Source of the DNA: an uncultured Bacilli bacterium
Lineage (GTDB): Bacteria; Bacillota_I; Bacilli_A; RF39; UBA660
Length of the DNA: 61,758 bases
NCBI GenBank assembly: GCA_947600335.1
Contig: CANQGB010000002.1
Coordinates: forward strand, 1-61,758
Direction: 5' to 3'
In this document: one piece after another, positions 277 through 28,900 of the stretch
Layout: every line of letters begins with the position of its first letter
How positions within the stretch are numbered: the stretch's first letter is position 1
The notes under the pieces: generated by a model
What the model was told of the DNA's origin: nothing
Database searches by the model: none
What the model saw: the letters and a program-made list of their open reading frames with translations, nothing else
Program-made: the position numbers and the translations under genes

Positions 277-3200
277 TTATTTTTTTAACACTAAATTTAA
301 AGCATTTATCTCATCATATTTGCTCATTATTTGATATTCTTTTACATCTTCAATACTCAAACCTAAAGTATCTGCAATTATACTATCCGTTATATCAGAA
401 TTACTTAAAGCTAACAATTTTAAATAAATAAGTTTTTGCTCTTTTAAAGTTAATTCTTTTAAATAAGGTGCAAAATAATTAGAACTTAACAACATAGCAA
501 TATAAGTTGGATAATTAGTAGCAATATATAAAACTAATTTATTTACATCATAAATTTCTATATTATCAATTAAAGATGTTAAAACTGTATCTAATGAATA
601 TTGGTGAAGACTAATGATATTATCTATACTTAAACCATCTTGAATATCTCGATAAATAACTAAATCCGTTTTCAAAGTTTTATATTCTTCATATATTTCA
701 TTTTTATCAATTAAATTATCTTTTTCTTCACTTATTTGAGAAGCAATTATCTCCTTATTTAACCATAATTTTATATATCTAATACCATTATAAAAAATTT
801 TTTGCTCCTTTTTATTAAATTTACTTGTATTAACCATTGAATCAATACCATTATTTAATAAAGATTTTAAATTAATTAAAGATTTACTTTTCTTAGTTTT
901 AAAAATCAACTCCACTTTTTTTCTTAAAATAGCCAATTCTTCATTTTGATTTTTTTCTATATAGCTCATAAAAGATTTTGCTCTTTTATCATCCATATTT
1001 AGCCTTTTCGTTAAAATAACTAAACCTTTATTAAACAAATCTAAATCTTGCTGAGATAATTCATAAAATTTAATATTTGTTAACACTTTTTTATGTGTTA
1101 ATTTACTAATAATTGCATATTCGGGAAATTGATTATTAGCCAATTCTTCATAAACTTTTTGTTGAAGCTTTTGAACCTCTAAAAACTCCAAGTTTTGACT
1201 TGTTAAACATTCCAATAGATTTTTTATATTAAACTTAACTTTTATCTCATCTAGAGACAAGTCTAAATATCTTTTTAAAGATTTAACTCCATCCCGAAAT
1301 AATACTTTATCACTACGATTAAATTCTTTAAAATCTATTAAAGCCTTAATATCTCCCTGAGTTAAATTATTTATTAATTGATAATGTTTTACATTGCTAG
1401 CTACTTTATATTCCATAACAATTTGATATTTAACTTTTAACTCAGTTAATTCTTGTGATGTTAACTCACTTTCTGTTAAATAATCTAACATACATTTTTT
1501 TCTTTTTTTATAAATCCCACTTTGTAAAATTTTAGTTATTTGTTTAATTCCCACATAAAAGTTACTTCTTTGAATATTATTTTCAAACTTATCAATTGGT
1601 TTATGAATATCCCCATTTGTCACTGCAATAATTACTTGAGCATATTGATTTTCACAATCTCGATAATCTAATAATATTTGTTCTAACTTTCTCTCTAATT
1701 CACTTATTTCATCCTTACTTGCCTCTTGTTTAATAAAATAATCCATTAAAGTTAAAGACTTAATTTTACCATTAATTGTCTCGACAATTGTTTCTTTATC
1801 ATAAGATAAATATTGGCGAATTACTTTAATTACAGAATATAAATAATTTATTGTTGTTTTAGAAAGGTTTTTCAAAACTATTTCTGAATCTAAACCATTC
1901 GTTAAGATTGTCTGTATTTTTTTAAAAGGAACGCTATTTTCTAAAGCCATAATTAATTCTACTTTTTCCCTAATAATGTTCTTTTGTTCTAATGACATGT
2001 CTTCATTGACAAAATAACTTAGAAAAGTTTTACTTTTTTTCTTTTTGTCTTTAACTTTTTTCTTAGATTTTAATTTTAATGTTAATTCTTCCAAGCTTAA
2101 ATCAATATATTTGGCAATTATTTTTCGACAATTTTTTAATGTATATTTTTGCTCACGCGTTAATTTTAACGATTTAACATCTGTTTCTACCCCATTAATC
2201 AAAATTTGCTCTAATTCACTAAACGATACTACTTGTTTCTTAATTTCCAAATCTATTATTAATTTAATCTTTTGCTTAATTAAGTCTTGTTCTTCTAAAG
2301 TCATATCTTCATTTATAAAATAATCTAGAAAAATTTTAGTTTTTATCTTTATTGCTTTAGGCTTAGTTGCTAATTTTATTGCTATTTCTTCTAAGCTTAA
2401 ATCGATATATTTTGCAATTATCATTTGACATTTTCTTAATGTATATTTTTGCTCATCCGTTAAAGTTATTAAATTAACATTGGTATCTAAACCATCAGGA
2501 AAAATATGCCTAAATATTACAAAAGAATTAACTTGCTTTTTTATTTTCAACTCTATTATCAAATTTACTTTTTGCCTAATTAAATCTTGTTCTTCTAAAG
2601 TCATACTATCATTTACAAAGTAATCTAAAAGCGTTTGTAATTTCTTTTTTATTTTAACCGGAGACTCATATTCTTTTTTTAATTCATTTATATCCTTATT
2701 CAAATATTTTTTAATAAGCCGATTACAACTATAAACTACATTGATATTTTGGATTTCGGAAATGCTTGTTTCTAATCCATTTGCTAACATTTGTTTCAAG
2801 TCTATGAACGACTTAACTTGCTTTTTTATTTTTATATCTATTATCAAATTTACTTTTTGCTTAATTAACTCTTGTTCTTCTAAAGTCATATTATCATTTA
2901 CAAAGTAACTCATAAAAGTTTTATCTTTATTTTTAATTTTAAGATTTACTTTTAATATTATTTTTATTTCTTCTGGACTTAAATTAATATACTTTTTAAT
3001 AGTTTTCTTACATTTATTTAATATACATTTTTGTTCATTAGTTAATTTTTTTAGATTAATATTTGTTTCCAATCCATTGGTCAAAATTTGTTTCAATAAT
3101 ATAAAAGACTCAACTTGTTTTTTAATCTCTCCCTCAATTATCAAATTTAATTTTGCCTTAACCAAATCCTGTTCTTCTACAGACATATTATCTGTTATAA

Positions 3201-3918
3201 AGTATTCCCAAAAAATCTCAGTATTTCTAATATTATTATTTTCTTTTAAAGCAGATTTAGTAATTTCCTTTTTAACAGGTATTTCTTTAACTCTTGTACT
3301 TTTATATTCTTTAAGCAACTTAGGCATTTCTTTAATTACATTATCCACATATTTTAAAACTTTAGTTTCTGCAACCCCTAAAATTTGACTAACCTCTTCC
3401 AAATTCTTTTTTTCTGTATGAATGCCATAATAATATTTAAAGGCAATTCTTTCATCTTGATTCTCATGTAGCATTAAAGCATTACTTAAAACATCTTCGC
3501 TTGCTTGAAGCATTCTTATCAATTGTGTTTTTGAAACTATAGAATCTGAATTTTTAAAAGCATCTTTTTCTTTACTTAAAATATTTTTTTGATAAGCTAT
3601 TAATTCACTATCATTTTTATCTAAAATGATATGCTCAATTACTACTAAAGACTTATTTTCTTTTTCTTGTAAAATCAGCATGAATTTTAACAATTCTTCA
3701 ATTCGAAATAAGATACTATCTAATTTAAAATCATCAGCATAAGAAAATATTATCATATCTCGGTCTTTTCCATCAAACTTTGGTCCAAATTTCTTTTGTA
3801 ATAATTCCATTGAGCTTTTGGCTTTTCTAAAACGTTTAAGAACTATATCGATAAATTCTTTAGGATAATCTTTAAATAATTCATACAATGATTTTACTTG
3901 TTTATTATACTTCATCAT
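277..3918 (-). CDS. Giant (1213 aa) internally repetitive protein of unknown function. It has an N-terminal ~235-aa domain ending in a sigma-70 region-4-like HTH, nine tandem 82-102 aa modules, and a C-terminal ~140-aa domain with a second region-4-like HTH
   Basis: Uninterrupted ORF with an AGAGGT RBS 5 nt before the ATG. N-terminal segment ERIAFKYYYGIHTEKKNLEEVSQILGVAETKVLKYVDNVIKEM and C-terminal segment LKEQKLIYLKLLALSNSDITDSIIADTLGLSIEDVKEY both resemble sigma region 4. Modules start near aa 235, 334, 429, 529, 631, 722, 809, 900 and 982. Confidence 0.85.
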   Translation of the reverse strand: MMKYNKQVKSLYELFKDYPKEFIDIVLKRFRKAKSSMELLQKKFGPKFDGKDRDMIIFSYADDFKLDSILFRIEELLKFMLILQEKENKSLVVIEHIILDKNDSELIAYQKNILSKEKDAFKNSDSIVSKTQLIRMLQASEDVLSNALMLHENQDERIAFKYYYGIHTEKKNLEEVSQILGVAETKVLKYVDNVIKEMPKLLKEYKSTRVKEIPVKKEITKSALKENNNIRNTEIFWEYFITDNMSVEEQDLVKAKLNLIIEGEIKKQVESFILLKQILTNGLETNINLKKLTNEQKCILNKCKKTIKKYINLSPEEIKIILKVNLKIKNKDKTFMSYFVNDNMTLEEQELIKQKVNLIIDIKIKKQVKSFIDLKQMLANGLETSISEIQNINVVYSCNRLIKKYLNKDINELKKEYESPVKIKKKLQTLLDYFVNDSMTLEEQDLIRQKVNLIIELKIKKQVNSFVIFRHIFPDGLDTNVNLITLTDEQKYTLRKCQMIIAKYIDLSLEEIAIKLATKPKAIKIKTKIFLDYFINEDMTLEEQDLIKQKIKLIIDLEIKKQVVSFSELEQILINGVETDVKSLKLTREQKYTLKNCRKIIAKYIDLSLEELTLKLKSKKKVKDKKKKSKTFLSYFVNEDMSLEQKNIIREKVELIMALENSVPFKKIQTILTNGLDSEIVLKNLSKTTINYLYSVIKVIRQYLSYDKETIVETINGKIKSLTLMDYFIKQEASKDEISELERKLEQILLDYRDCENQYAQVIIAVTNGDIHKPIDKFENNIQRSNFYVGIKQITKILQSGIYKKRKKCMLDYLTESELTSQELTELKVKYQIVMEYKVASNVKHYQLINNLTQGDIKALIDFKEFNRSDKVLFRDGVKSLKRYLDLSLDEIKVKFNIKNLLECLTSQNLEFLEVQKLQQKVYEELANNQFPEYAIISKLTHKKVLTNIKFYELSQQDLDLFNKGLVILTKRLNMDDKRAKSFMSYIEKNQNEELAILRKKVELIFKTKKSKSLINLKSLLNNGIDSMVNTSKFNKKEQKIFYNGIRYIKLWLNKEIIASQISEEKDNLIDKNEIYEEYKTLKTDLVIYRDIQDGLSIDNIISLHQYSLDTVLTSLIDNIEIYDVNKLVLYIATNYPTYIAMLLSSNYFAPYLKELTLKEQKLIYLKLLALSNSDITDSIIADTLGLSIEDVKEYQIMSKYDEINALNLVLKK
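700..3216 (-). repeat. In-frame tandem coding repeats (9 modules). Modules 1-4 (about 2029-3216) are still recognisable at the DNA level with a 287-305 bp period
   Basis: The string (g)ttcttctaaagtcat... recurs near 2290, 2590 and 2877, with diverged copies near 1985 and 3172. Protein motif: F(L/M)xYF(V/I)N(D/E)xM(T/S)LEEQxLIxQK(V/I)xLIIxxxIKKQV...LTxEQKxxLxxCxxxIxKYIxLSxEEI. Confidence 0.8.
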
Positions 3919-3931
3919 TTCTACCTCTTTT

Positions 3932-3983
3932 CAAAAAAACATTCAAAATAATAGGTTAGATTACCTAATAATTTGAATGTTTT
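3932..3983 (-). terminator. Long hairpin plus U-tract lying between the DUF362 stop and the RBS of the giant gene. It is either a terminator or a leader attenuator
   Basis: Arms 3937-3956 and 3963-3982 pair at 18 of 20 positions (AAACATTCAAAATAATAGGT / ACCTAATAATTTGAATGTTT) around a 6-nt loop. The plus-strand A7 run 3933-3939 is the U-run on the minus transcript and ends about 14 nt before the giant gene's start codon. Confidence 0.55.
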
Positions 3984-4063
3984 AAATTTTTAAATATTAT
4001 CTCAACTATTTTAGCCACCTAAAAATAGGTTAGCACAAATTTAACCGCGTTGCAATTATTTTC

Positions 4064-4945
4064 TTAGGCAATTTCAATTAATTCGTATTCCTTATTTCCT
4101 ATTCCTAAGTCATATGCCGCATCTATGGTATGAGTTCCATGTCGCGAATTAATTCTTTCTAATAAATGGTCTTTCCCAGCATCTTGCGAATTCTTAACTA
4201 AATCAATACATGCTTGGTCAATAGCTACTGGGTCTAAGGATGCTAAAATTCCAATATCTTGCATACAAGGGTCTTCTGCCGTAGCACAGCAATCACAATC
4301 AACAGACATATTAGCCATGATATTTATATAAGCAATTCTATCTTGAAAATGCTTTGTAATTGATGAAGCCGCATCGGCCATGGCTTCTAAAAATTTATCT
4401 TGATCGACTTGAAACATTTCTTCATAAGTTCCATTTTCTTTTCCTACACAATGAATATATCTTTTGCCTACACTTGAAGAAACCCCAATAGAAAGTTGTT
4501 TCAAAGCTCCACCATAACCACCCATTGGATGTCCTTTAAAATGCGATAAAACTAACATTGAATCATAGTTTTCTAAATGACTACCTACATAATTTTTCTT
4601 AATTACCTTGCCGTTAGGAATTTCCAAAACTACCTTGGCATTTTCTCCATCCATAATGTCGACATCAAAATATTTGCTCCAACCATGCTCTTGCATTAAT
4701 ACCTCATGTTTTGCGGTGGTATCTCTTGCTCCATCATAAGCCGTATTACATTCAACAACGGTTCCGTTAACATAATCAATCATGGGTTTTAAAAATTCTG
4801 GTTTTAAATAATTTTGATTACCAGCTTCTCCTGAATGCACCTTAACAGCCACTTTTCCCGGCAAATTTATTCCTAATTGTTGATAAAGTTTAACAACATT
4901 TTCTTTCGTTAAATTTTTGGTAAAATACACTTTAGCTTTTTCCAT
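4064..4945 (-). CDS. DUF362-like protein with a Cys-rich motif (putative Fe-S binding)
   Basis: 293-aa ORF with a GAAGG RBS. The N-terminus MEKAKVYFTK...VAVKVHSGE and the motif SVDCDCCATAEDPC recall the DUF362 family. Assigned from memory, not searched. Confidence 0.55.
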   Translation of the reverse strand: MEKAKVYFTKNLTKENVVKLYQQLGINLPGKVAVKVHSGEAGNQNYLKPEFLKPMIDYVNGTVVECNTAYDGARDTTAKHEVLMQEHGWSKYFDVDIMDGENAKVVLEIPNGKVIKKNYVGSHLENYDSMLVLSHFKGHPMGGYGGALKQLSIGVSSSVGKRYIHCVGKENGTYEEMFQVDQDKFLEAMADAASSITKHFQDRIAYINIMANMSVDCDCCATAEDPCMQDIGILASLDPVAIDQACIDLVKNSQDAGKDHLLERINSRHGTHTIDAAYDLGIGNKEYELIEIA

Positions 4946-4992
4946 CTATTAACCTTCTTTCTATCTAATAGTATAGCATACTTTCTCCAAAT

Positions 4993-5613
4993 TCATTTAC
5001 TTTTTTCCTCATCTTTTTGCCAAATCAACAGATAACGATTATACAAGCCATATTTAATCTTCGCATTCGGTAAATATTTTTGGGCTAATTTTCTTATGGT
5101 CGTTAACGTTGAAAACTGATAACTAGTCGGAATATTTAACTCTTCACTTGTCTGATTATGATGAAAAAATGTCCCGATTTGACAAGGAATAAACCGGGCT
5201 ATCTCCACTAAATAATCTAATACTGTACTCGATTTATATAACCCAACTATTAGCAAAATTCCCTTATTTTTTAATAATTCTTTAGCTTTTTTAATTGCTT
5301 CTTTTTCCTTCATATGATGGATTGAAGCTACAAAAGTTATTGCTTCAAACTTCTTATCACTTTTAAAATCTGTTAAAGAACTTTCTTTAAAAATAACATT
5401 TGACTTAATTAATGCTTTCTCTTTTGCTCTTTTAACACAATCTTTATCTGTATCAATTCCTACGATAGTTTTACCTTCATCGGCTAAATACAAAGCTAAA
5501 GTCCCATCCCCACAGCCGACATCTAAAATACTTTGACAATTTTCTAACTGTTTTTTAATCCACTTATAATAAGCCGCGTTATGATTCCAAAAAGGCAATT
5601 TCGTATCTTTCAT
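4993..5613 (-). CDS. Class I SAM-dependent methyltransferase
   Basis: Motif I ILDVGCGDGTLALYLA followed by an acidic residue (GIDTD). AAGGTGAG RBS. Confidence 0.75.
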   Translation of the reverse strand: MKDTKLPFWNHNAAYYKWIKKQLENCQSILDVGCGDGTLALYLADEGKTIVGIDTDKDCVKRAKEKALIKSNVIFKESSLTDFKSDKKFEAITFVASIHHMKEKEAIKKAKELLKNKGILLIVGLYKSSTVLDYLVEIARFIPCQIGTFFHHNQTSEELNIPTSYQFSTLTTIRKLAQKYLPNAKIKYGLYNRYLLIWQKDEEKSK

Positions 5614-5650
5614 CTTCTCACCTTCTTTATTGTACTAAAAAAACAATCCT

Positions 5651-6394
5651 TTATAAAGATTGTCCTTTTTTCGTAGTTCTAGTTTTTTTCTTTGGTGCAC
5701 TACTAGTCTTACTTAATTTAATTACTTGAGCATTACTTTGTTCCATTTGTTCTAATTTAGCATAAATTTTTTCATATTGTTTATGATCAGCTCTTAAAAT
5801 TAAACAACCAGTTATCGAAATCCAAACTACAATAATACAAATACCTAAAATTATTAAATTTTTATTATCACTTCTAGAATTTAGTTTTTCTTCAGCTTTT
5901 TTAGCTTCTTCCATTTTTGTAAAAACATCATATCTTTCTTTTTTAGGCGTATTATATAATTCGGTAATAGCACTCTTTATTTGTTCATCATAAGAGTTTG
6001 AATAACCAGGGAATACTTTATCTCCAATTATAATATAAGGTACTCCACCCGCTGGATTTCCTAAAAAGTTAGATACTTCGGTTAAAAGTTGAGAATTCTT
6101 ACTATCATTCCATACCTCAAAAGACTTAACCTTAAAATACTTACCATATTCATCTGTAATACTATTCATAAAATTTAAAAATCTTTGACAAAAGCCACAA
6201 CCTTTACCGCGGAATAAATAAATTGTTATTTGATCATCATTTTCTTGATAATTTGTAAATGCTTCTTCAATAGACTCTTCTTTTAAAGTTTCTTGAAAGT
6301 TTAAAGTCTTATACTCTTCTTCTGCCCAAACATTAATTGGCCAAATTAGAAAATTTAATAAAACAACTAACATTAATATAACATTCTTTTTCAC
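5651..6394 (-). CDS. Exported thioredoxin-fold protein (CGFC active site) with a C-terminal TM anchor and a Lys-rich tail
   Basis: The motif FRGKGCGFCQRF is a CxxC site. There is an N-terminal signal-like segment and a C-terminal helix LIILGICIIVVWISITGCLIL. The likely start is the GTG at 6394 behind a GGAAGTGA RBS; the ORF track extends to 6418. Confidence 0.65.
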   Translation of the reverse strand: MKKNVILMLVVLLNFLIWPINVWAEEEYKTLNFQETLKEESIEEAFTNYQENDDQITIYLFRGKGCGFCQRFLNFMNSITDEYGKYFKVKSFEVWNDSKNSQLLTEVSNFLGNPAGGVPYIIIGDKVFPGYSNSYDEQIKSAITELYNTPKKERYDVFTKMEEAKKAEEKLNSRSDNKNLIILGICIIVVWISITGCLILRADHKQYEKIYAKLEQMEQSNAQVIKLSKTSSAPKKKTRTTKKGQSL

Positions 6395-6440
6395 AAAATC
6401 ACTTCCTAATAGATACAATTATACCACGCATTACTTAAAT

Positions 6441-7442
6441 TTAATACTTTTTCTTCACAATCATATCATCATATGCTTCTAATTGTTTAGGATTTAAATA
6501 ACCATCATCTATCGCTTTTTTAATATTCATTTTTAAACCATTTAATTCCAACCTAATTAAGACATTTTTACTATCATGATTTTTTAAATAATACTTATAA
6601 TCTTTATCTTGATAAATTAATTCGTTATTTTCTATATCTTCATCTTGGTAATCATATACATTAAAAAATAAATAACTCGTTTCTTGTTCGATTAATTTGC
6701 GAAAATCAAAACCATTAGTAACCGAATAATAAGCACATCCACCCAGTTGACTTTCTAAGTTTAACCTTTTGCCATCGCTCCAAAACCAAATAGAATCTAA
6801 CAGTTTATCTTCATTATACATTTCAAACTTAAAATTAGTCCCATCACAAAGGAATACCTCACCATATTGTTTACTAGTTTTAACGGCTTCCACTACTTGG
6901 GCAATTTGTTCTGGACTTGTAATCGCGCCTAAAACTTTATCCCCATTTTTAATTTCTATCTTCGTTGTATCTTGCAAACTATCAACTAAAGCACTATCCA
7001 TTTCTTTATTTTTTACTTCTCTTTTTTTATCTGTTACAAAACATTGGTCTAATTCTTTTAAATCTAAATCATTCTTGCGATTATCAAAATACACAACATA
7101 TTCATTATGTAAATAAGTTTGAAATATATTATCATCTTTATTAAAATATAAATCCATATCTTTTAATAGCTCATATGAAGCATCTTTTAAAACAACATAA
7201 ATATCTTCTTCAGTATTTTTAACTGCTTTAAATATCTTAACAGTTTCTTCATTTGTAAAAGTATCTAAGTTTACCTCTTCTAAATTATTTTTTTCACTCG
7301 CTAAATAGCCCCCTAATTTATTTTCTAAACAGGATACTATCTCTTCATCAGTTAGTTCATCACTAATCATTTCTTGAGTCTTTTCTTTACATCCAACCAC
7401 TAAAAAAGAAAACATTATTAAAAATACAATTTTTTTCACCAT
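6441..7442 (-). CDS. Lipoprotein, function unknown
   Basis: The signal peptide MVKKIVFLIMFSFLVVGC has a lipobox Cys. AAGGAG RBS. Confidence 0.7.
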   Translation of the reverse strand: MVKKIVFLIMFSFLVVGCKEKTQEMISDELTDEEIVSCLENKLGGYLASEKNNLEEVNLDTFTNEETVKIFKAVKNTEEDIYVVLKDASYELLKDMDLYFNKDDNIFQTYLHNEYVVYFDNRKNDLDLKELDQCFVTDKKREVKNKEMDSALVDSLQDTTKIEIKNGDKVLGAITSPEQIAQVVEAVKTSKQYGEVFLCDGTNFKFEMYNEDKLLDSIWFWSDGKRLNLESQLGGCAYYSVTNGFDFRKLIEQETSYLFFNVYDYQDEDIENNELIYQDKDYKYYLKNHDSKNVLIRLELNGLKMNIKKAIDDGYLNPKQLEAYDDMIVKKKY

Positions 7443-7459
7443 TTCGGATAACTCCTTTA

Positions 7460-7981
7460 TTATTTATTAGCTAATTTTCTTACTAAAGTACCAGGATTAT
7501 GAAAACATTCATTAAACAAATTAGATGTTTCATAATTAAAAAATATTTCTTGATAATTAATTACATTACCATTTAAATTATAAATAGCCATTCTATTCAA
7601 TTTAGTATAATCAAAAGGTTTTTGAATAAAATAAAAATTTTTCATATCTCGTGAAATAATTGCAATATCTAAAGTAAAAGTCTCATAACATCCTTTCCAT
7701 TTAGGATAATATGAAAAAGCCAAGTAATTTAGATCTAATAATGTTTCTAACTTTTTAATTGGATCATTTAAAGGCGGATTTACATCCATATTAGCCAATA
7801 TATCTTTTAATTCTTCTAATAATTCTAATTTTTCGTTGCTATCTTCATAGCTATTAATTTTATATATCATTCTTTCAATATCTGTATAAATAATTTTTTG
7901 ATATTCAAAATAATTATCTAGTTCTTCTTTACTACATAAATCTATATCATTGGTATAATAATTTAAATGTTTTAATTCCAT
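7460..7981 (-). CDS. Hypothetical protein (173 aa)
   Basis: ORF only, with a weak RBS and no motif I recognise. Confidence 0.5.
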   Translation of the reverse strand: MELKHLNYYTNDIDLCSKEELDNYFEYQKIIYTDIERMIYKINSYEDSNEKLELLEELKDILANMDVNPPLNDPIKKLETLLDLNYLAFSYYPKWKGCYETFTLDIAIISRDMKNFYFIQKPFDYTKLNRMAIYNLNGNVINYQEIFFNYETSNLFNECFHNPGTLVRKLANK

Positions 7982-8143
7982 TTTAACTGCCTACTTTCTA
8001 ATTAAAGCCATTATAACATAAATATTTAATTATACCCCAAAATTTTTTTTCTACTTTACTATTTTAAATTTAAAGTTTTAATTATTTCTATAGCATTCCA
8101 TTTAAGTGTGTTTCCTAAATTGTCAAAGTTTAATATAAAAGCA

Positions 8144-8172
8144 TTGTATTAAGAACAAATGTTCGATATAAT
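8144..8172 (+). promoter_or_regulatory. Sigma-A-type promoter TTGTAT-17 nt-TATAAT driving the small ORF at 8234
   Basis: The -35 is at 8144-8149, the -10 at 8167-8172, and the spacer is exactly 17 nt. Confidence 0.6.
8152..8165. promoter_or_regulatory. LexA (SOS/Cheo) box AGAACAAATGTTCG
   Basis: GAAC-N4-GTTC palindrome plus the 3' flanking G. It fits the Firmicute consensus CGAACRNRYGTTCG at every position except the first, and it lies inside the promoter spacer. Confidence 0.7.
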
Positions 8173-8233
8173 TTTATTGGGAGCATTTAATAGTTGGGTG
8201 ATTGCCAAACTTCATAAAGAAGGGAGGCGATAT

Positions 8234-8317
8234 ATGAACAAGAAGGATTTTTTAATTCTATCTTTAGTAATTCTTATCTTCCTATTAGTATTATTACTAT
8301 TTATAGTTTTAATATAA
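8234..8317 (+). CDS. Unannotated 27-aa hydrophobic peptide MNKKDFLILSLVILIFLLVLLLFIVLI. Candidate type I toxin or SOS-induced membrane peptide
   Basis: The RBS GAAGGGAGG (8219-8227) sits 6 nt before the ATG. The peptide is a basic N-terminus plus a single TM-length helix. A promoter lies upstream and a terminator downstream. It is too short for the supplied ORF track. Confidence 0.5.
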   Translation: MNKKDFLILSLVILIFLLVLLLFIVLI

Positions 8318-8371
8318 AAAGAAAATCACCTAACTCAGCAATGATTTAGGTGAAACCAAAATTATATTGGC

Positions 8372-8406
8372 AACACTCAACATGCGATATTGAATGTTCC
8401 TTTTTT
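8372..8406 (+). terminator. Rho-independent terminator of the small-ORF transcript
   Basis: Stem AACACTCAA / TTGAATGTT (9 bp, 1 mismatch) with a 9-nt loop, followed by CC and a T6 run. Confidence 0.6.
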
Positions 8407-8444
8407 ATTTTATGCAAGTTTCCTTGACAAATACATAATAACAT

Positions 8445-8468
8445 AAAAACGCACTTTTATCAAGTACG
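8445..8468 (-). terminator. Terminator downstream of tRNA-Met
   Basis: The minus strand reads CGTACTT-GATA-AAGTGCG (7 bp including one G-U pair) followed by TTTTT. Confidence 0.5.
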
Positions 8469-8509
8469 CTATCTATTTTTACTCGTTTTTTCCGAGTTTC
8501 ATATCAATT

Positions 8510-8586
8510 TGGTAGCGGGAGAGGGACTCGAACCCCCAACATTTCGGGTATGAACCGAACTATCTAGCCAGTTGATATATCCCGCC
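8510..8586 (-). tRNA. tRNA-Met (anticodon CAT), elongator type, with the CCA end encoded
   Basis: Hand-folded cloverleaf: GGCGGGA TA TATC AACTGGCTA GATA G TTCGG TTCATAC CCGAA ATGTT GGGGG TTCGAGT CCCTC TCCCGCT A CCA. The anticodon arm and T arm closely resemble Bacillus elongator tRNA-Met. There is no GGG/CCC in the anticodon stem, so it is not the initiator. A lysidine-modified tRNA-Ile2 cannot be fully excluded. Confidence 0.85.
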
Positions 8587-19867: not shown

Positions 19868-21181
19868 TTAAAAATTTATAGGTACGATTTCACAGCCTCT
19901 TTTTATTTCTTGAATTTCCGCGGCATATAAAATCTTTCTAGTTGCCAATTTCCGGGCCATTTTTTCCAATAAATCTTTATTTAAAGCAATAATCTCTTTA
20001 GCCTTTAGATAATATTGATAAACTTGACTAGATATGACATATTCTTGAGATTCTTTTAGTTTATTAGAAATATCAAATGAATTTGAAAAATAATTAAATC
20101 CACAGATACAATCATCTAAAACTAAGTTTTTTACTAAACTAAAAGCTTTACTATAATCTTTACGAGCCCCAGAATCAACGATTCCAAATTTTTGTTCCAA
20201 GGCGGCCATTCCCCCTAAACTTATTAAAATGTTATATTTCATCCAATTCATATTTTCCATGCTAACATCTCGATAAATAGAGGTAAAACCCCCAGAGTTT
20301 CCTTCTTTCCCATAAGCTGTGATTAGACTAACACTTCCGGGCATTAATACTTCGGATATCAAAGCGTGTCCAACCTCATGATATATAATTCTTGATGAAA
20401 GCTCATTTCTATTTTGTAAATTGTCTAACCAATTATTACTTTCTTCTTCCCGAGCCACGGAAACTTTAAAAATAATTTGTAAACAAGCTTTTAAAATATG
20501 TTGCATAGTAATGTATTTTTCTCTTTCAAACCCAGCATATATCCCCGCTTGATTTATAACGGTTTCTAGTTCGGCACATGAACAACCATTTAAAATCTTC
20601 GCTAAAGATTTTATGTCTACATCTATTTTCATCTTTTTATTATTCAAATAATATTTAATGATATTTAAAGCATCCTCACCTACCGGATTTTTAATTTCGA
20701 TTCTTTGGTCAAATCGACCGGCTCTTAAAAGTGAATCCGGTAAATTTAGAATATTATTAGCGGTAGCTAAAACAAAGACATCCCGGCCTTTTACCTCATC
20801 AATACATGATTGGACGGTAACATATTCTTCGGCATCCTTGCGATGAATATCCCCATTCGCAAACTTATCCATATCATCTAAAAAGATTATCGCTGGGGCA
20901 TTATCTAAAGCCTTTTTAAACATACTTTTTAAATGATTGATAAAATCACCATTGGGTTTATCTTTTCGACAAACAAAACACTTTAAACCGGATGCCTCTA
21001 CTAAGCAATTAGCCATTAATGTTTTTCCAACTCCTGGTTCACCATAAAGTAACAAACCATTGGGTTTTGTTATTCCTAATTCAGAATATACTTTATCATT
21101 TTTTAAGATATCAGCAATTTGTTTTAATTCTTTTTTTACTGCACTATATCCAATAATTTTTTCAAATTCTTTCATACACAT
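19868..21181 (-). CDS. Soluble FtsH-like protein with no TM segments: an AAA+ ATPase fused to an M41-type zinc metalloprotease (HEVGH)
   Basis: Walker A GEPGVGKT, Walker B IIFLDDMD, second-region-of-homology-like LLRAGRFD, then HEVGHAL. There is no hydrophobic N-terminus. The start is at 21181 or 21175. Confidence 0.8.
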   Translation of the reverse strand: MCMKEFEKIIGYSAVKKELKQIADILKNDKVYSELGITKPNGLLLYGEPGVGKTLMANCLVEASGLKCFVCRKDKPNGDFINHLKSMFKKALDNAPAIIFLDDMDKFANGDIHRKDAEEYVTVQSCIDEVKGRDVFVLATANNILNLPDSLLRAGRFDQRIEIKNPVGEDALNIIKYYLNNKKMKIDVDIKSLAKILNGCSCAELETVINQAGIYAGFEREKYITMQHILKACLQIIFKVSVAREEESNNWLDNLQNRNELSSRIIYHEVGHALISEVLMPGSVSLITAYGKEGNSGGFTSIYRDVSMENMNWMKYNILISLGGMAALEQKFGIVDSGARKDYSKAFSLVKNLVLDDCICGFNYFSNSFDISNKLKESQEYVISSQVYQYYLKAKEIIALNKDLLEKMARKLATRKILYAAEIQEIKRGCEIVPINF

Positions 21182-21248
21182 ACTTCTTTCTTTTTTAAGA
21201 TTGAAGGTATTATATAAAAAGAAATGTACCATTTTTAGTACATTTTCA

Positions 21249-22223
21249 TTAATTTTTATACTTATCTATTCCCTTTAATAAATCCTTTTTAATTTGTTCT
21301 CTTAAAGTTAAAGGCGATATTATTTCTACACTGTTAAGATACTGCATAGCCCAATATTTCATGGCATTCGGACTAGCTTTAACGGTTACTTTAATGGTAT
21401 CTTCATTTTCTTCCATTTGGACATTGGTCCCAAACCATTCGACAATATCATCAATAATTGCTTTCTTCGCTCCAAAGACTATCGTTTGTAAATCATCAGT
21501 AAACAAATAAGGATAAGACGTTGATAATTCTTCATAATTAATTCCTTGTTCATAACCTTTTATATTATGAATATCTGTTAATTTATTATCGGTTAAAGAT
21601 ATATTGGTAATATGATCAACCCGATAATAAACAATATTTTGATAATACTCATGTAGAGCCATTAAATAATAATGTTGATTATGAACAATTAATTGATAAG
21701 GACTTACAGTATGACTCTTCGTAAAATGCAATTTTTTATCAATACCATATTTATTATAATCAAACTTAATTTGTAATTCTTTTTCAATAGCTTCATCAAT
21801 TTGTTCTATATTATAAAATAAACTTTTAGATTCCGTTTTATTCCATTCATTAACCGAGTAAATATTTTTAACATGGGCTTGAAAATACTTATTAGCTAAA
21901 CTACATAACTTATAAATTAAATCTTTAGAATAAGTAGCATTGATATATTTACTACATAAGACCCCATCAATTAAAACTCTTAATTCCGAATCTTCAAAAT
22001 CTCTTTCTTCTAAATAATTACCTAAATGGTTAGTTTCAATGGCATATCCCGCTTCTTTTAATAAAGATATATTTCGGCCAATGGCTTTTCTTTCAATAAT
22101 TATCCCATAATCATTTTCCAAATACTTTGCAATATCTTCTTGCGTTAAAGGATGATTTATATCCGTATGTTTTTTTAAAATATCTAAAATTCTTAATAAA
22201 GCCAATTTTTTCGATTCATTCAT
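21249..22223 (-). CDS. WYL-domain transcriptional regulator (wHTH-WYL-WCX, YafY/PafBC/BrxR-like architecture)
   Basis: N-terminal wHTH LRILDILKKHTDINHPLTQEDIAKYLENDYGIIIERKAIGRNISLLKEAGYAI. WYL-like core SPYQLIVHNQHYYLMALH...YYRVDHITNI. C-terminal WCX-like segment YWAMQYLNSVEIISPLTLREQI. AAGGTGA RBS. Confidence 0.8.
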   Translation of the reverse strand: MNESKKLALLRILDILKKHTDINHPLTQEDIAKYLENDYGIIIERKAIGRNISLLKEAGYAIETNHLGNYLEERDFEDSELRVLIDGVLCSKYINATYSKDLIYKLCSLANKYFQAHVKNIYSVNEWNKTESKSLFYNIEQIDEAIEKELQIKFDYNKYGIDKKLHFTKSHTVSPYQLIVHNQHYYLMALHEYYQNIVYYRVDHITNISLTDNKLTDIHNIKGYEQGINYEELSTSYPYLFTDDLQTIVFGAKKAIIDDIVEWFGTNVQMEENEDTIKVTVKASPNAMKYWAMQYLNSVEIISPLTLREQIKKDLLKGIDKYKN

Positions 22224-22270: not shown

Positions 22271-22299
22271 AAAAAAAGAATAGAAACTAAGTCTATTCT
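22271..22299 (-). terminator. rpoC terminator
   Basis: The minus strand reads AGAATAGA-CTTAGTT-TCTATTCT followed by T7, starting at the rpoC stop codon. Confidence 0.75.
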
Positions 22300-25200
22300 T
22301 AATTAATCGGGTCAACTACTTCAGAACTATTGTCCATTAATTTTTCTTCCAGCATTTCATCTGGTTCATCACTCATAAATTCTTTTTCTAAAAGGATTTC
22401 AATATCGCTATATTGTTTAGCTCCTGTTCCAGCTGGAATTAATTTACCAATAATAACGTTTTCTTTTAATCCTCTTAAGTAATCAATTTTACCTTTAATG
22501 GCTGCATCCGTTAAAACTTTTGTTGTTTCTTGGAATGAAGCAGCTGATAAGAAGGAATCAGTTTCAAGAGATGATTTAGTAATACCAAGCATTAGTGGTC
22601 GACCTTTAGCTGGAACACCACCTCTTAGAATAACCGGTTTATTACCTTCAGTAAATTCACGCATCGAAACAGTTAAACCTTCTACAAAGTCAGTATCACC
22701 TTTATCGATAATCCGAACTTTATTAGTCATACGAGAGGCAATAATTTCGATATGTTTATCAGAAATATCAACACCTTGTAATTTATATACCATTTGAATT
22801 TCTTTTAAGATATATTCTTGCGCGGTAATTGGGTCAGTAACGGCTAGTAATTCTTTAGGACTTATAGCACCTTCAGTTAATTTATCACCAGCATTTACTA
22901 CATCGCCAACATTAACTCTAATTTTCATATTATAGTTAGTTACATGCTCACGAACTTCCACATCGTTGGCAATAACAATTTTATATTTGCCATTTTGTTC
23001 TTCAATAGATTCAATTTTACCACTAATTTCTGCGATAGTTGCTTTACCTTTAGGGTTACGAGCTTCGAATAATTCTTCAACTCTTGGAAGACCTTGGGTA
23101 ATATCATCGCCCCCAGCAACACCACCAGAGTGGAATGTCCGCATGGTAAGTTGGGTACCAGGCTCACCAATTGATTGAGCAGCCATAATACCAACAGCTT
23201 CACCAGTTTCAACTAAGTTACCAGTTGCTAAGTTACGACCATAACATTTTTGACAAACGCCATTTTCGCATTTACATGTAAGAATTGAACGAATTTCTAC
23301 GCGTTTAATCCCGGCTTTTTCAATTTTAGCGACGATATTTTCGTTAATTTCTTCGCCTTTTTCTAAGATAACTTCTTTAGTCGTTGGATTGATAATTCTT
23401 TGCGCTGAATAACGACCTAAAATACGTTCTGATAAAGGCTCAATTACCGAACCATCTTTATCATTAATTAAATCGTATACTTCGACACCATTAATTGAAC
23501 CACAATCGTATTCGCGAACAATTATATCTTGAACAACATCAACTAACCGTCTAGTTAAATATCCTGAATCGGCAGTACGAAGAGCAGTATCGGCAGAACC
23601 TTTTCTAGAACCATGGCTAGATAAGAAGAATTCTGATACGCTTAAGCCTTCAATAAAGTTTGATGTAATTGGGATTTCAACAGTTGAACCATCTGGTTTA
23701 GCCATTAAACCCCGCATACCAGCAAGTTGAACGAAATTCGAAATAGAACCACGAGCTCCAGAGTTCATCATCATGAATAATGGATTATCAAAATCACCTT
23801 TAGCCATCGCTTGTAATTCGGCTTTAATTTTATCGCTTTGTTTTGTCCAAGCTTCAATAACATTATTATAACGTTCTTCTTCCGTTATTAAACCACGTTT
23901 AAATTGTTTATTAATTTTATCAACTAATTCATTACCTTCTGCAATGATTTGGTCTTTAGTTTCACTAACTTTAATATCAGCAGCCGAAACTGTAATACCA
24001 GCGATAGTAGAATATTTAAATCCTAAATCTTTTAATTTATCAAGCATTACAGATGTTTCAGTTGTTTTATATCTTTTAAAGACTTGGGCAATAATACTTT
24101 CCAAATTTTTCTTGATAAATGGTTGCACTAAATCGCGTTTTTCCACTTCTTCTTTAATATTTGAACCCATATCAATAAAATATTTACTTGGCGTAATTCC
24201 TTCGATATTTTCTTTAGTTGGTTCATTTATAAATGGGAAAGTATCTGGTAAAATCTCGTTGAAAATAATTTTACCACAAGTAGTTATTAAATATTTATCT
24301 TTTTGGTCATCCATAAATAATTTATGTTTGAAAGAACGAACAGGAACAACAATTCTCGTATGAAGAGTTATTTCTTTTCGGGCATAAGCCATTAATACCT
24401 CATTAGAATCTTTATAAACTTTAGCCTCATTAGGTTCGCCAGCTTTTTCAATAGTTAAGTAGCAGTTACCTAATACCATATCTTGGGATGGGGTAACGAT
24501 TGGTTTACCATCTTTTGGGTTTAAGATGTTATTAGCCCCTAACATTAATATTCTAGCTTCGGCTTTAGCTTCTTCCGAAAGTGGTACATGGACAGCCATT
24601 TGGTCACCATCGAAATCGGCGTTGAATGCGGCACAAACAAGTGGATGTAACCGGATAGCTTTACCACCAACTAATTTTGGTTCGAAGGCTTGAATACCTA
24701 GTCTATGTAAAGTTGGAGCCCGGTTTAGCATTACTGGGTGTTCAGTTATAACATCTTCCACAACATCCCAAACTTGGTCATCACGAGCTTCAATTAATTT
24801 TTTCGCACCTTTAATATTATGGGCTAAACCTCTTTCAACTAAGCCATGAATAACATGCGGTTTAAATAGTTCCAAAGCCATTTCTTTTGGAATACCACAT
24901 TGATACATTTTTAAGTTTGGTCCAACAACGATAACACTACGACCAGAATAGTCGACACGTTTACCTAATAAGTTTTGACGGAAACGACCTTGTTTACCTT
25001 TTAAGATACTAGATAAACTCTTAAGTGGCCGATTACCAGCAGCGGTTACACTTCTTCCTCTTCGACCATTGTCAATTAAGCTATCAACAGCTTCTTGAAG
25101 CATTCTCTTTTCATTTTGAACAATGATAGTTGGAGCTCCAAGTTCCAGTAATTTTTTTAAACGATTATTCCGGTTAATAATTCTTCGATATAAGTCATTT

Positions 25201-25961
25201 AAATCAGATGTGGCAAATCTTCCACCATCTAATTGAATCATTGGCCGTAAATCGGGAGGTAAAACTGGCAATACATTTAAAACCATCCATTCAGGGCGAT
25301 TATTAGATTCTTGGAATGATACTAAGCAATCTAAACGTTTGCCTAAACGAATCCGTTTTTGACCAGTAGCATTTTCTAATTCTTTCTTTAATTCTTCAAC
25401 TTCTTTATCAATATCGACTTCTTTAAGTAGTTCTTGAATAGCTTCAGCACCCATACCTACTTTAAAGCTTGAGCCATATTTTTCATAATAAGCCCGATAT
25501 TCTTTATCAGATAAAGTTTGTTTTTTCGCAAGTGGAGCACTTCCGGGGTCAATTACAACATAACTAACAAAGTATAAAACTTCTTCCAAATCTCTTGGTG
25601 ACATATCTAGAACTAGACCCATTTTCGAAGGAACACCTTTAAAGAACCAAATATGGCTACAAGGACTAGCAAGTTCAATATGACCCATTCTTTCCCGTCT
25701 TACTTTTGATTTAGTTACTTCAACACCACAACGGTCACAAACAACATTTTTATATCTTAATCTTTTATATTTACCACAACTACATTCATAATCTTTAGTT
25801 GGTCCAAAGATTTTTTCACAGTATAGACCATCTCTTTCAGGTTTTAAGGTCCGATAGTTAATAGTTTCTGGTTTTTTAACTTCACCATAAGACCAAGAAC
25901 GAATCTTATCAGGAGAGGCAATACCTATCTTGATTCCTTTAAAATTATTTACTTCCATCAT
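22299..25961 (-). CDS. rpoC: DNA-directed RNA polymerase subunit beta'
   Basis: 1220 aa. NADFDGDQM catalytic motif and a zinc-finger CxC...CxxC at the N-terminus. Confidence 0.98.
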
Positions 25962-28900
25962 AAGATATCACCTTCCTTTAAATCTTCTTCTTCCAAATCA
26001 TCTGGAAATTCTAAATCATCTAAATCGTTATCAAATTCGCTTTCTTCCTCTTCGTAATCGGAATTTTCCGGTTCTTCTGGCTCAGTAGGTTCTTGAATAT
26101 CAATTTCATCTATTCTAATAACATTATCTTCTTTATCTTCTTCCTCTTCAATGTCTTTGATATCAATTAATTTATCATCATTGTTAAGGATTTGAATATC
26201 TAAGCCTAAAGCTTGGAATTCTTTAATTAATACTCTAAAGCTTTCTGGTACGCCAGCTTGATTAACTGTTTTACCTTTAACTAAAGATTCATATACTTTA
26301 ACCCGACCAACAACATCATCGGATTTAATTGTTAAGATTTCTTGAAGAACATGAGCAGCACCATAAGCATATAGAGCCCAAACTTCCATTTCCCCAAATC
26401 TTTGACCACCAAATTGGGCTTTACCACCAAGTGGTTGTTGAGTTACTAAGGAATAAGGTCCTGTTGCCCGAGCATGTAATTTATCATCAACCATGTGGTG
26501 AAGCTTTACCATGTACATAACACCAACATTGATACGATGTTCAAATGGTTCACCAGTTCGACCATTGATTAATTCAACTTTACCATCTTCACTCATGCCA
26601 GCTTCTTTCATTTCTTCATGAATATCATCAAGGTTAGCTCCATCGAATACTGGAGTGGCATATTTAACGCCTAATCGTTTTCCGGCCATTCCTAAATGAA
26701 CTTCCAAAATTTGACCGATGTTCATCCGCGATGGAACACCTAATGGATTTAACATGATATCAACTGGACGACCATCTGGTAAATAAGGCATATCTTCTTC
26801 TGGTAAGACTAATGAGATAACACCTTTGTTACCATGACGACCACTCATCTTGTCACCAACTTGAATTTTCCGCTTTTGAATAATATATACTCTAATTATT
26901 TTGAATACTCCTGGTGGCATGTCATCACTATTTTCTTTAGTATAAACTTTAACATCATGAACAATACCATCAGCACCATGCTCTACTTTTAATGAAGTAT
27001 CTCGAACTTCCCGAGTTTTTTCACCAAATATAGCATGTAATAATTTTTCTTCACTAGTTAATTCTTGAACCCCTTTTGGTGTTACTTTACCAACTAAGAT
27101 ATCGCCTTCGTGAACTTCAGTACCAATTCGAACAATACCTTCACTATCCAAATTACGGCGAGCTTCTTCACCAACATTCGGAATATCACGAGTAATTTCT
27201 TCTGGTCCTAATTTAGTATCACGGCATTCAATTTCATATCTTTCAATATGTAGTGATGTATAGACATCATCTTTAACTAATCTTTCATTCAAAATAACGG
27301 CATCTTCATAGTTATAACCATTGTAAGTCATGAACGCAACAGTCATATTTTTACCAAGAGCAAGTTCTCCGTTTTCAGTACTAGGTCCATCGGCAATAAC
27401 TTGGCCAGCATGAATTTTGTCGCCTTTTTTAACAAGTGGTCTATGATTTAAACTACTTGAAGCATTAGTTCTTTCGAAATTAGCTAAGTAATAAGTATCT
27501 TTAGCTTTAGCGGTTTTAACAACAATTTTTAAAGCATCCGCATATTCAACAACACCATCCGCTTTAGCAACAACTGTACTTCCTGAGTATTTAGCGGCTA
27601 CATGTTCAACACCCGTACCAACAATTGGACTTTCGGATGTTAATAAAGGAACTGCTTGCCGTTGCATGTTGGCACCCATTAAAGTACGGTTAGCATCATC
27701 GTAATCTAGGAATGGAATACAACTAGTTGTAATAGCAACAATTTGACTTGGAGCGACATCGACATAGTTTACTTGTTCCCGATTAACCATCACGTTATCG
27801 CCATTAATTCGAACGATTACTTTATCATCGACAATGCGTTTATTATCATCTAATTTAACAGTTGCTTGTGAAATATAGAAATCGGCTTCTTCATCTGCGG
27901 TTAAGTAAACAACATCATCTTGAACTACTCCATCAATTACTTTACGATATGGCGTGGTAATAAAACCATATTCATTGATTTTTGCATAACCGGCTAAAGA
28001 TGTAATAAGTCCGATATTTTGACCTTCTGGTGATTCGATTGGACAAATCCGACCATAATGGCTTGCATTAACATCTCGAACTTCCATACCTGCCCGGTCT
28101 CTTGATAGTCCACCTGGACCTAAGCTTGATAACCGCCGTTTATTAGTTAACTCGGCAATCGGATTGATTTGGTCCATGAAAGCCGATAATTGAGATGAAC
28201 CAAAGAATTCTTTTAAGACAGCTGTTACTGGGCGAATATTAATTAAAGATTTTGGCGTAACATTTTCAATTTCTTGGGTAGTCATTCGTTCCCGAATAAC
28301 TCTTTCCATTCTCGCCATACCAGTTCTAAATTGGTTTTGAATTAATTCACCAACTTGGCGAACTCGACGATTTCCTAAATGGTCAATTTCATCGACATTA
28401 CCAATACCAGCATGTAAGTTTAAATAATAAGAAATAGAAGCATAAATATCTGAAATTGTTAAACGTTTAATATCGATATTTTGGTCATTACCAATAATCT
28501 TAATAACTTTATCAGGATTTTGTTTATCATAAACTAAAATCTCTTGAATTTGGTCATATTCATCTAATTCTTCATTAATAATAGTTTTCTTTAAACCAAA
28601 ACCATTTTTTAGAATTGGTTTAATTTTTTCTAACAAGTCTTTAGTAACGACATCGCCTTTTTTAGCGACTACTTCTTTGCCATCTTTAATATCCATAGCT
28701 AAAGTGGTATTAAGTAAACGGTCAGCAACATTTAATTTTTTATTGAATTTATAACGACCTACTTTCGCTAAGTCATAACGGAAATGGTCAAAGAAACGAA
28801 CAACTAATTGGTTTTTCGCTGAATCTAATGTAGCTGGTTCGCCTGGTCTTAATTTTTCGTAAATTTCAATTAAAGCTTCATCACTATTCTTAGTATTATC

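Follow-up and report, generated by a model that had tools for sequence, protein, structure and literature searches.

The tisB/istR-1 and dinQ/agrB loci of Escherichia coli are LexA-controlled type I toxin-antitoxin systems. Such SOS-controlled toxins (TisB, DinQ) are textbook knowledge in E. coli, and we know of none in Firmicutes or Bacilli. Here we analyze a stretch of 61,758 nucleotides from an uncultured Bacilli bacterium (GenBank assembly GCA_947600335.1, contig CANQGB010000002.1, positions 1 to 61,758; "the window" below means this whole stretch) and describe in it a cassette of about 410 bp that joins a putative LexA operator, a gene for a 27-residue hydrophobic peptide, and a predicted antisense RNA gene. 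We read the locus as a LexA-repressed type I toxin-antitoxin cassette, a reading to which we give a probability of about 0.65. The sequence signals that characterize type I systems are all found: a small hydrophobic open reading frame (ORF), a predicted cis antisense RNA, and a predicted mRNA fold that would block translation. A preliminary description, made from the sequence alone, had proposed an SOS-controlled locus for a membrane-active peptide, and comparison with relatives now supports its ORF, its box, and the closure of its mRNA, together with a predicted antisense RNA.

How does the locus compare with described systems? In tisB and dinQ, a LexA-repressed promoter drives a hydrophobic inner-membrane peptide of 27-29 residues, the primary transcript folds into a form that is not translated, and the threshold is set by a small antisense RNA made constitutively, all of which we propose for the cassette. 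However, searches against NCBIfam, Pfam, and Rfam found no sequence similarity of the cassette to TisB/DinQ or IstR/AgrB. In E. coli the antitoxin genes lie upstream and their RNAs pair with the 5' untranslated region (UTR), whereas here the two genes are convergent and overlap in the 3' UTR. The operator is of the Firmicute type, GAAC-N4-GTTC, rather than the CTGT-N8-ACAG of E. coli, and unlike tisB and dinQ the cassette is multi-copy and docked at tRNA genes.

The txpA/RatA, bsrG/SR4, bsrE/SR5, and yonT/SR6 systems of Bacillus subtilis share with the cassette convergent genes with RNAs that overlap at their 3' ends, an antitoxin promoter stronger than the toxin promoter, and a partly sequestered Shine-Dalgarno (SD) sequence. 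To our knowledge, none of these four is LexA-regulated. Their toxins belong to prophage or skin-like elements and are longer, with charged C-terminal tails, unlike the peptide described here. The par system of Enterococcus faecalis (fst, RNA I/RNA II) likewise has convergent RNAs that meet at terminator hairpins. The 3'-overlap architecture is common to these systems and the cassette, but TxpA, BsrG, and Fst with RatA, SR4, and RNAII gave no sequence or covariance-model match. In hok/sok of plasmid R1 and aapA1/isoA1 of Helicobacter pylori, the full-length mRNA is locked by pairing between its distant 5' and 3' parts, as predicted here, and such a lock implies 3' processing or refolding for activation. 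Those two systems differ in that the antisense RNA targets the 5' region and LexA control is absent, and they show no homology to the cassette. Ibs/Sib of E. coli resembles the cassette in its extremely hydrophobic, very short peptide and its multi-copy repeats. Our peptide matches neither the Fst nor the Ibs family, and Sib covers the entire ibs ORF, while the antisense RNA of the cassette would reach only as far as the toxin stop codon.

Because no toxin, antitoxin, or RNA family matched, and because the cassette had no match in public plasmid and phage records or in IMG/VR viral contigs, we class it as new. The cassettes apparently form a large, undescribed toxin/antisense-RNA family of the type I kind in uncultured gut Bacilli, and the lack of plasmid, phage, or viral-contig matches gives no sign of a phage or plasmid origin. 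If our reading holds, SOS-controlled type I toxins exist outside Gammaproteobacteria, and DNA damage by antibiotics, bile, oxidants, or phage would be linked to depolarization, growth arrest, or persistence in poorly studied gut Bacilli. The locus would also offer a compact model: about 330 nt hold an operator set between -35 and -10, a hairpin over the SD sequence, a 5'-3' lock in competition with the terminator, and an antisense RNA that overlaps the 3' end.

The proposed toxin mRNA and the predicted antisense RNA

Similarity of the cassette to other genomes (84-95% DNA identity) is limited to about 8104-8518, and the flanks are unrelated. A DNA pattern made from the 5' UTR and SD sequence, GTTGGGTG-N3-4-CCRAAYT-N7-16-GGAGGCGA, was searched in a collection with one genome per species and retrieved at least 119 stretches of species-representative metagenome-assembled genomes (MAGs) that carry the cassette. 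All copy and promoter counts rest on these listed matches, from which we collected 134 copies (110 of them complete and non-identical) and promoter sets of n = 131 (unique) or n = 133; the copies share descent, so the counts are of non-independent events. The search for peptide and box in related genomes that the preliminary description had called for thus finds that both recur in the family, though the box is not in every copy. Its elements also stand where it had placed them, each having been re-read at its position between 7600 and 9000. The parts of the cassette are as follows.

8104-8509: whole conserved cassette, about 410 bp, consisting of the toxin gene, the antisense RNA gene, and a trailer abutting a tRNA gene (from the conservation profile)
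8144-8172, plus strand: toxin promoter, with -35 TTGTAT (8144-8149), a 17-nt spacer, and -10 TATAAT (8167-8172)
8152-8165: putative LexA operator AGAACAAATGTTCG within the promoter spacer (a fixed-position motif in relatives)
8179-8233, plus strand: structured 5' UTR, in which 8180-8190 and 8193-8200 pair with the terminator arms and 8202-8208 with 8367-8373
8193-8208, 8324-8334, and 8367-8373: complementary segments GTTGGGTGATTGCCAA, AATCACCTAAC, and TTGGCAA
8219-8227, plus strand: SD sequence GAAGGGAGG, GGAGG core at 8223-8227
8234-8317, plus strand: toxin ORF of 27 codons (MNKKDFLILSLVILIFLLVLLLFIVLI), ATG at 8234, stop at 8315-8317
8326-8353: hairpin 1, TCACCTAA/TTAGGTGA, a 3'-UTR hairpin on the plus strand and the antisense terminator on the minus strand
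8369-8406, plus strand: toxin terminator, whose stem keeps an internal C.A mismatch throughout the family, then U6
8463-8435, minus strand: predicted antisense (antitoxin) promoter, with -35 TTGATA (8463-8458), a 17-nt spacer, and extended -10 TGT-TATTAT (8443-8435), from a consensus promoter scan
about 8428-8314, minus strand: predicted antisense RNA of about 115 nt with three hairpins (fold z = -4.1)
8426-8415, minus strand: antisense 5' hairpin CAAG-GAAA-CUUG

The toxin mRNA (8179-8407) has a minimum free energy (MFE) of -65.9 kcal/mol, compared with -37.6 +/- 4.3 kcal/mol for shuffled sequences (z = -6.6), and its MFE fold joins the 5' UTR to the 3' end in a helix of about 36 bp. The 5'-3' closure proposed earlier is therefore the MFE structure. 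Covariation also supports it, and the TTGCCAA:TTGGCAA pairing proposed earlier is in the MFE fold, although one partner has to be exchanged: GUUGGGUG (8193-8200) prefers a terminator arm over hairpin 1. An alifold consensus of 110 sequences pairs 8182-8190 with 8390-8398 in the terminator 3' arm, where both sides change in five of nine pairs, and alifold and MFE agree in pairing GUUGGGUG with CACUCAAC (8374-8381) in the terminator 5' arm. A local hairpin, formed by GCC 8204-8206 with GGC 8226-8228 and by CUUC 8210-8213 with GAAG 8219-8222, buries part of the SD sequence, and its CUUC/GAAG stem has undergone compensatory CG-to-UA and UA-to-CG swaps. Across the consensus mRNA fold, 98.6% of cells are paired, and 14 pairs show double changes, compared with 6.7 +/- 1.3 after shuffling (0/500), while slid controls gave 3-9. 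Covariation is seen in both the 5'-3' closure and the SD hairpin.

Pairing between the terminator 3' arm and the 5' end is canonical in 103 of the 110 copies; the terminator's own nine-pair stem is fully canonical on the plus strand in just 2. Since the 3' arm pairs with the 5' end and the 5' arm always carries the C.A mismatch, the terminator seems built to yield to the 5'-3' lock. We also considered pairing of GUUGGGUG with CACCUAAC of hairpin 1, a near-repeat of CACUCAAC; this pairing is 99.9% canonical, but alifold and MFE favor CACUCAAC, and we retain it as a possible alternative rather than as the main pairing. The three-way covariation of the UTR with the left and right arms fits pairing in cis and in trans alike.

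The signals on the minus strand are equally regular. Among the 110 cassettes, the antisense promoter has a 17-nt spacer in 101, the extended -10 TG in 105, and a fixed position in 102. The shape of the antisense 5' hairpin is kept through compensatory variants (CAAG/CUUG, AUGAAG/CUUCAU, GAUGAG/UUCAUC, AUGAGA/UCUCAU, and others), and its GAAA loop is a GNRA tetraloop on the minus strand only. The middle stem is complementary to the toxin terminator; read on the minus strand, every one of its nine pairs is canonical in 93/110 copies, as against the 2/110 on the plus strand, with variable positions forming G.U on the former and C.A on the latter. Hairpin 1, whose closing pair covaries (UA54/CG47), is followed on the minus strand (8353-8326) by UUUUCUUUUU (8325-8316) and so gives a canonical intrinsic terminator that ends at the toxin stop codon. 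The predicted overlap between antisense RNA and toxin mRNA spans about 8316-8406. Conservation extends to the promoter, the hairpins, and the terminator of the antisense RNA and carries strand-specific signals, which answers, at the level of sequence signals, the earlier suggestion that an antisense transcript be looked for. Rfam scans with gathering and E-value thresholds returned tRNAs and noise only, with no match to an antitoxin model.

These features suggest how the cassette could work. In an undamaged cell, LexA bound to AGAACAAATGTTCG would fill the spacer of the toxin promoter and shut out RNA polymerase. Any toxin mRNA that leaked through would be inert, its 5' UTR closed onto the 3' terminator region by the helix of about 36 bp and its SD sequence partly buried. 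The convergent promoter, predicted to be stronger and constitutive, would supply the antisense RNA of about 115 nt, with perfect complementarity to the final ~90 nt of the toxin mRNA, and the resulting duplex should be cleaved and decay, by analogy with the B. subtilis systems. DNA damage would then lead to RecA-stimulated self-cleavage of LexA and a burst of toxin mRNA that outruns the antisense RNA, and the 27-residue peptide would insert into the membrane and slow or kill the cell. DNA damage thus probably switches on a membrane-damaging peptide; LexA binding, transcription of both RNAs, RNase involvement, toxicity, and the membrane target are all steps that we infer from sequence.

Could the peptide instead be an SOS-induced membrane effector, a checkpoint protein or division inhibitor whose antisense RNA merely tunes its level? 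The pairing of a LexA operator with a short single-pass peptide would suit such a role. SidA of Caulobacter, which is 29 aa long, YneA of Bacillus, and SosA of Staphylococcus are small, membrane-anchored, LexA-repressed SOS division inhibitors. However, these are single-copy genes without a dedicated antisense RNA, and YneA and SosA are larger, with extracellular domains (YneA has a LysM domain and is encoded divergently from lexA), whereas the peptide here has no domain. The cassette occurs in several copies per genome, in tandem arrays, and in degenerate form, which would be unusual for a checkpoint gene, and the operator is missing in about 42% of copies. One related MAG (L105) already has a separate 51-aa transmembrane ORF divergent from lexA, in what we take to be the yneA position, as yneA is divergent from lexA in Firmicutes. 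A locus that is multi-copy, sometimes tandem, sometimes degenerate, and equipped with its own antisense RNA fits a toxin-antitoxin system better than a division inhibitor. In the same way, repression stacked in four layers (operator, SD hairpin, 5'-3' lock, and antisense RNA) fits a harmful product better, as do the tandem or multiple copies and the degenerate ones. The degenerate copies (8/110) are the only hint of toxicity, an indirect one. We therefore regard an effector of this kind as unlikely.

The putative operator and the LexA of the clade

The toxin mRNA probably starts at G8179. The operator ends one base before the -10 hexamer, and its 12-nt core ends two bases before it. It matches the Firmicute LexA (DinR) consensus, which we take to be CGAAC-RNRY-GTTYC or GAAC-N4-GTTC, in a position that overlaps the promoter. 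Within the window this box is the only rAAC-N4-GTTYG on either strand of the 61.8 kb, and no other 14-mer there comes within one mismatch of CGAAC-N4-GTTCG, although one GAAC-N4-GTTC against 0.31 expected, with at least one in 26 of 100 shuffles, is not significant alone. In the family promoters (n = 131), the -35 TTG is 83-95% conserved and the TATAAT 91-99%, and the consensus anchored on the -10 element reads TTG(-35)...A-G-A-A-C-A-A-A-T-G-T-T-T-G-n-TATAAT. GAAC-N4-GTTY is present in 48 of 133 promoters, compared with an average of 0.11 in shuffled promoters; 46 of those 48 boxes end exactly 2 nt ahead of the -10, and the motif occurs in both UTR subfamilies. The near-consensus LexA box that the preliminary description placed in the 17-nt spacer thus holds a fixed promoter position among relatives. 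The 133 promoters fall into these operator classes.

GAAC-N4-GTTC: 2/133 (the window and one relative, L019)
GAAC-N4-GTTT: 46/133
AAAC-N4-GTTY: 22/133
looser variants: 7/133
none: 56/133

Is there a LexA in this clade to bind such a box? A tblastn search found full-length lexA genes in three related MAGs (L118, L062, and L105) and a partial one in a fourth (L110), confirmed by the Pfam domains LexA_DNA_bind and Peptidase_S24, and the promoters of lexA genes in related MAGs carry CGAACAAATGTTTG, TGAACATTTGTTTG, and AAAACATTTGTTTG. A metagenome scan with the L118 LexA yielded 80 lexA loci (64-96% identity) with 70 unique upstream regions. In 64 of these 70, the motif [G20/A44]-AAC-A-(A/T)-(T/A)-T-GTT-T(60/64)-G(62/64) lies at about -70 and overlaps the -35 element TTGAC. 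The operator, a conserved feature of the cassette family, is the identical motif with which lexA in this clade is autoregulated, as judged from its promoters. The 13-nt motif occurs in two promoter contexts with one N4 preference and one G/A alternation at its first base, as expected for a shared repressor. If this is right, rAAC-AWWT-GTTTG is a clade-specific LexA profile that can be used to predict the SOS regulon.

A distal second box ending in TTCG-TG is present in 46/70 lexA upstream regions. The two-box layout of these lexA promoters (L132-L211, about -120 to -60 from the lexA start) consists of a distal box ending in (G/A)TTCG-TGTCAAT and a proximal rAAC-AWWT-GTTTGAC over the -35 element.

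Outside the cassettes, non-coding GAAC-N4-GTTY motifs upstream of ORFs number four in 913 kb of cassette-bearing loci: two in lexA promoters, one at a MazG gene (L131), and one at an XRE-type gene. The MazG promoter (L131, ~5875; TTGTTTAAAGAACAAATGTTTGATATAAT) has an operator-in-spacer design like that of the toxin promoter. In L118 (4600-5867), a gene for a MazG-type pyrophosphohydrolase (Pfam MazG) lies in the operon divergent from lexA, and in L105 (3735-4960) a 110-aa counterpart without a Pfam hit lies divergent from lexA, as does the 51-aa ORF mentioned above. Tight linkage of cassette and lexA was considered and rejected: lexA lies within a few kb in 4 of about 119 listed loci, and a cassette occurs in 0/80 lexA loci.

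An alternative is that the cassette is of type I but not under LexA, with AAC-N4-GTT bound by another factor or kept for the promoter's sake and the GTTC of the window arising by a chance T-to-C change. The class counts lend this some weight, with GTTC in only two promoters and no box in 56 of 133, as does the lack of significance of the lone box in the window. In the consensus, moreover, GTTTG supplies the TG of an extended -10 element (T-G at -3/-2, 88% and 84% conserved, serves as both), and the T-to-C change in the window abolishes it. However, C at -11 (63%) and G at -6 (70%) are conserved against a background of 13%, and no promoter element accounts for either. Nor would this alternative lead one to expect the identical 13-nt motif over the -35 element of 64/70 clade lexA genes, with the same N4 preference and G/A alternation, or the near absence of the motif elsewhere in the 913 kb of related DNA and in the window. 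We judge control by something other than LexA to be quite improbable.

Several points nevertheless weigh against a LexA-repressed toxin-antitoxin cassette, beginning with the kinship of the copies. The 56 promoters without a recognizable box (~42%) imply that SOS control is facultative in the family, and because the GTTT half-site overlaps the extended -10 TG in most copies, its conservation is partly explained by the promoter. There is no lexA in the 61.8-kb window; it was seen in related MAGs and metagenome contigs. The preliminary description had asked for lexA and for the motif at SOS genes; relatives supply both in their lexA promoters, but recA, uvrA, and similar SOS genes, sought in the window as a test of the motif, are not there either. 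Its view of the promoter as a good one did not hold up. The -35 TTGTAT agrees with TTGACA at only 3 of 6 positions, which is why the promoter scan missed it, and the extended -10 TG, present in 84% of family members, is absent. The window copy may therefore be poorly expressed even if derepressed. Relative to the consensus, the same T-to-C change completes the canonical GTTC half-site and removes the TG; the window copy combines the best operator in the set with a weakened promoter. Altogether, SOS control looks ancestral but facultative, with about half of the copies keeping an rAAC-N4-GTTY box.

The 27-codon gene

The peptide has a polar N-terminus, MNKKD, followed by a 22-residue hydrophobic helix of transmembrane length. 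An intact ORF of exactly 27 codons is found in 102 of the 110 complete copies, and in 98 of these 102 the SD sequence stands 7 nt from the ATG. Intact copies show no indels in the ORF, although the UTRs do. Entropy by codon position is 13.0/4.8/18.5, so that the second position varies least, and the ratio of nonsynonymous to synonymous polymorphism (pN/pS) is 0.26. K3, K4, L21, and L22 are invariant and D5 nearly so. The 27-codon ORF is a selected coding gene under purifying selection, and the short hydrophobic ORF with a strong ribosome-binding site that was first proposed is real. In the remaining 8 copies the start codon is lost or the frame is shifted, while the RNA elements are kept.

The claim that the peptide belongs to no named family also stands: Pfam and NCBIfam searches with three peptide variants gave no family, the sole match (HokA, E = 0.12) being noise. 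A 52-codon ORF that begins at ATG 8159 was rejected as the gene because this ATG sits inside the operator, upstream of the -10 element. An exact look-up of its 52-aa product found nothing on record, and a protein search with it found eight metagenome proteins, each ending C-terminally in the 27-residue peptide. Ahead of it, these proteins consist of 5' UTR read through in a frame-dependent way, and "KEGGE" there is the translated SD sequence. Gene callers thus have a blind spot here: the 27-codon ORF is overlooked, or a false longer one that runs through the 5' UTR is called in its place.

Parts of the ORF carry RNA constraints as well. TTATCTTCCT (8274-8283) is near-invariant even at wobble positions, and its partner in the MFE fold is the SD sequence. 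A hairpin inside the ORF (8289-8314), in which ACU 8296-8298 pairs with AGU 8305-8307, covaries (AU82/GC13, CG93/UA14) in a way that couples replacement of Val25 by Thr with synonymous changes in Leu21 and Leu22. That the whole locus is a non-coding structured element, such as a tRNA trailer or recombination site with an incidental ORF, is scarcely credible: very high nucleotide conservation including wobble positions such as those of TTATCTTCCT, covariation within the ORF, and an exact junction with tRNA 3' ends would suit it, but it leaves unexplained an exact 27 codons free of the indels seen in the UTRs, a strong SD sequence at a fixed spacing of 7 nt, coding-type entropy by codon position, and a pN/pS of 0.26.

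tRNA junctions, distribution, and surroundings

In the window, the cassette ends against a tRNA gene, with two further features.

8510-8586, minus strand: tRNA-Met(CAT), with the cassette starting right after its CCA end
8448-8497, minus strand: conserved tRNA trailer, with hairpin ACUCGG..CGAGU (8497-8481) and the tRNA terminator hairpin plus T-run (8470-8448)

Within that terminator hairpin lies the -35 element of the antisense promoter. A convergent tRNA lies beyond the antisense promoter in 36 of 106 cassettes. The trailer, (G/A)ATTGATAGGAAACUCG..CGAGU plus terminator, directly abuts the CCA end in at least 10 different tRNA species (Ala, three Arg, Cys, three Leu, Lys, Met, two Thr, and Trp), always convergent with the toxin gene, and copies without a tRNA keep a TGGTRCC stub. 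This arrangement suggests docking or recombination at tRNA 3' ends, or else antitoxin expression coupled to the tRNA. It is conceivable, though doubtful, that the cassette of ~410 bp is a self-contained selfish unit that docks precisely at the CCA ends of many different tRNA genes, brings along its own trailer hairpin and a tRNA terminator, and has moved as one block into more than 100 species of uncultured gut Bacilli. If so, a minimal toxin-antitoxin element would possess a means of targeting or mobility not described so far, or else read-through would couple the antitoxin to tRNA transcription. A genomic island at tRNA-Met was rejected: the 3' end of tRNA-Met has no direct repeat in the rest of the window, and the ORFs to the left of the cassette (277-7981) include no integrase. 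An insertion sequence-type rve transposase adjoins one cassette (L005 181-1006).

Among the matches listed, the cassette hosts are MAGs labeled uncultured Bacilli, Erysipelotrichaceae, "Tenericutes", Firmicutes CAG:321, and similar, from the gut of rabbit, ruminant, mouse, and human. Several MAGs have the cassette on two or three contigs, and two copies lie close together in five loci (L060, L082, L106, L120, and L127), 333-414 nt apart where measured. No second copy was found within the window. Muribaculaceae-labeled MAGs (L041, L044, L076, L079, and L084) own several cassette-bearing contigs, whose AT-rich, Firmicute-like sequence suggests mis-binning and not presence in Bacteroidota. Three low-coverage contigs from the same species as the window (L001-L003) all break inside the toxin ORF, with ends at about 8279-8289, and many contigs of other genomes terminate within the cassette. 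Its repetition may fragment assemblies.

The window itself is a low-GC (~27%) chromosome of Firmicute type with nearly all genes on the minus strand. Its gene content includes EF-P, FtsK, RNase J, SSB, sortase, and SpoIVA, and the ORFs at 22299-29569 are rpoBC-sized, an assignment by size only and without a Pfam scan. The ORFs that flank the cassette (173 aa on the left, 217 aa on the right) belong to no Pfam family, and a 1213-aa ORF at 277-3918 has none at E <= 0.001. Just downstream of the rpoBC-sized ORFs, at 19868-22223, a 454-aa protein with AAA and Peptidase_M41 domains (FtsH-like) is encoded beside a 324-aa WYL-domain protein. The former is presumably shorter than a typical FtsH and may lack the N-terminal membrane part, and the two could form a regulated cytosolic protease or a defense-type pair.

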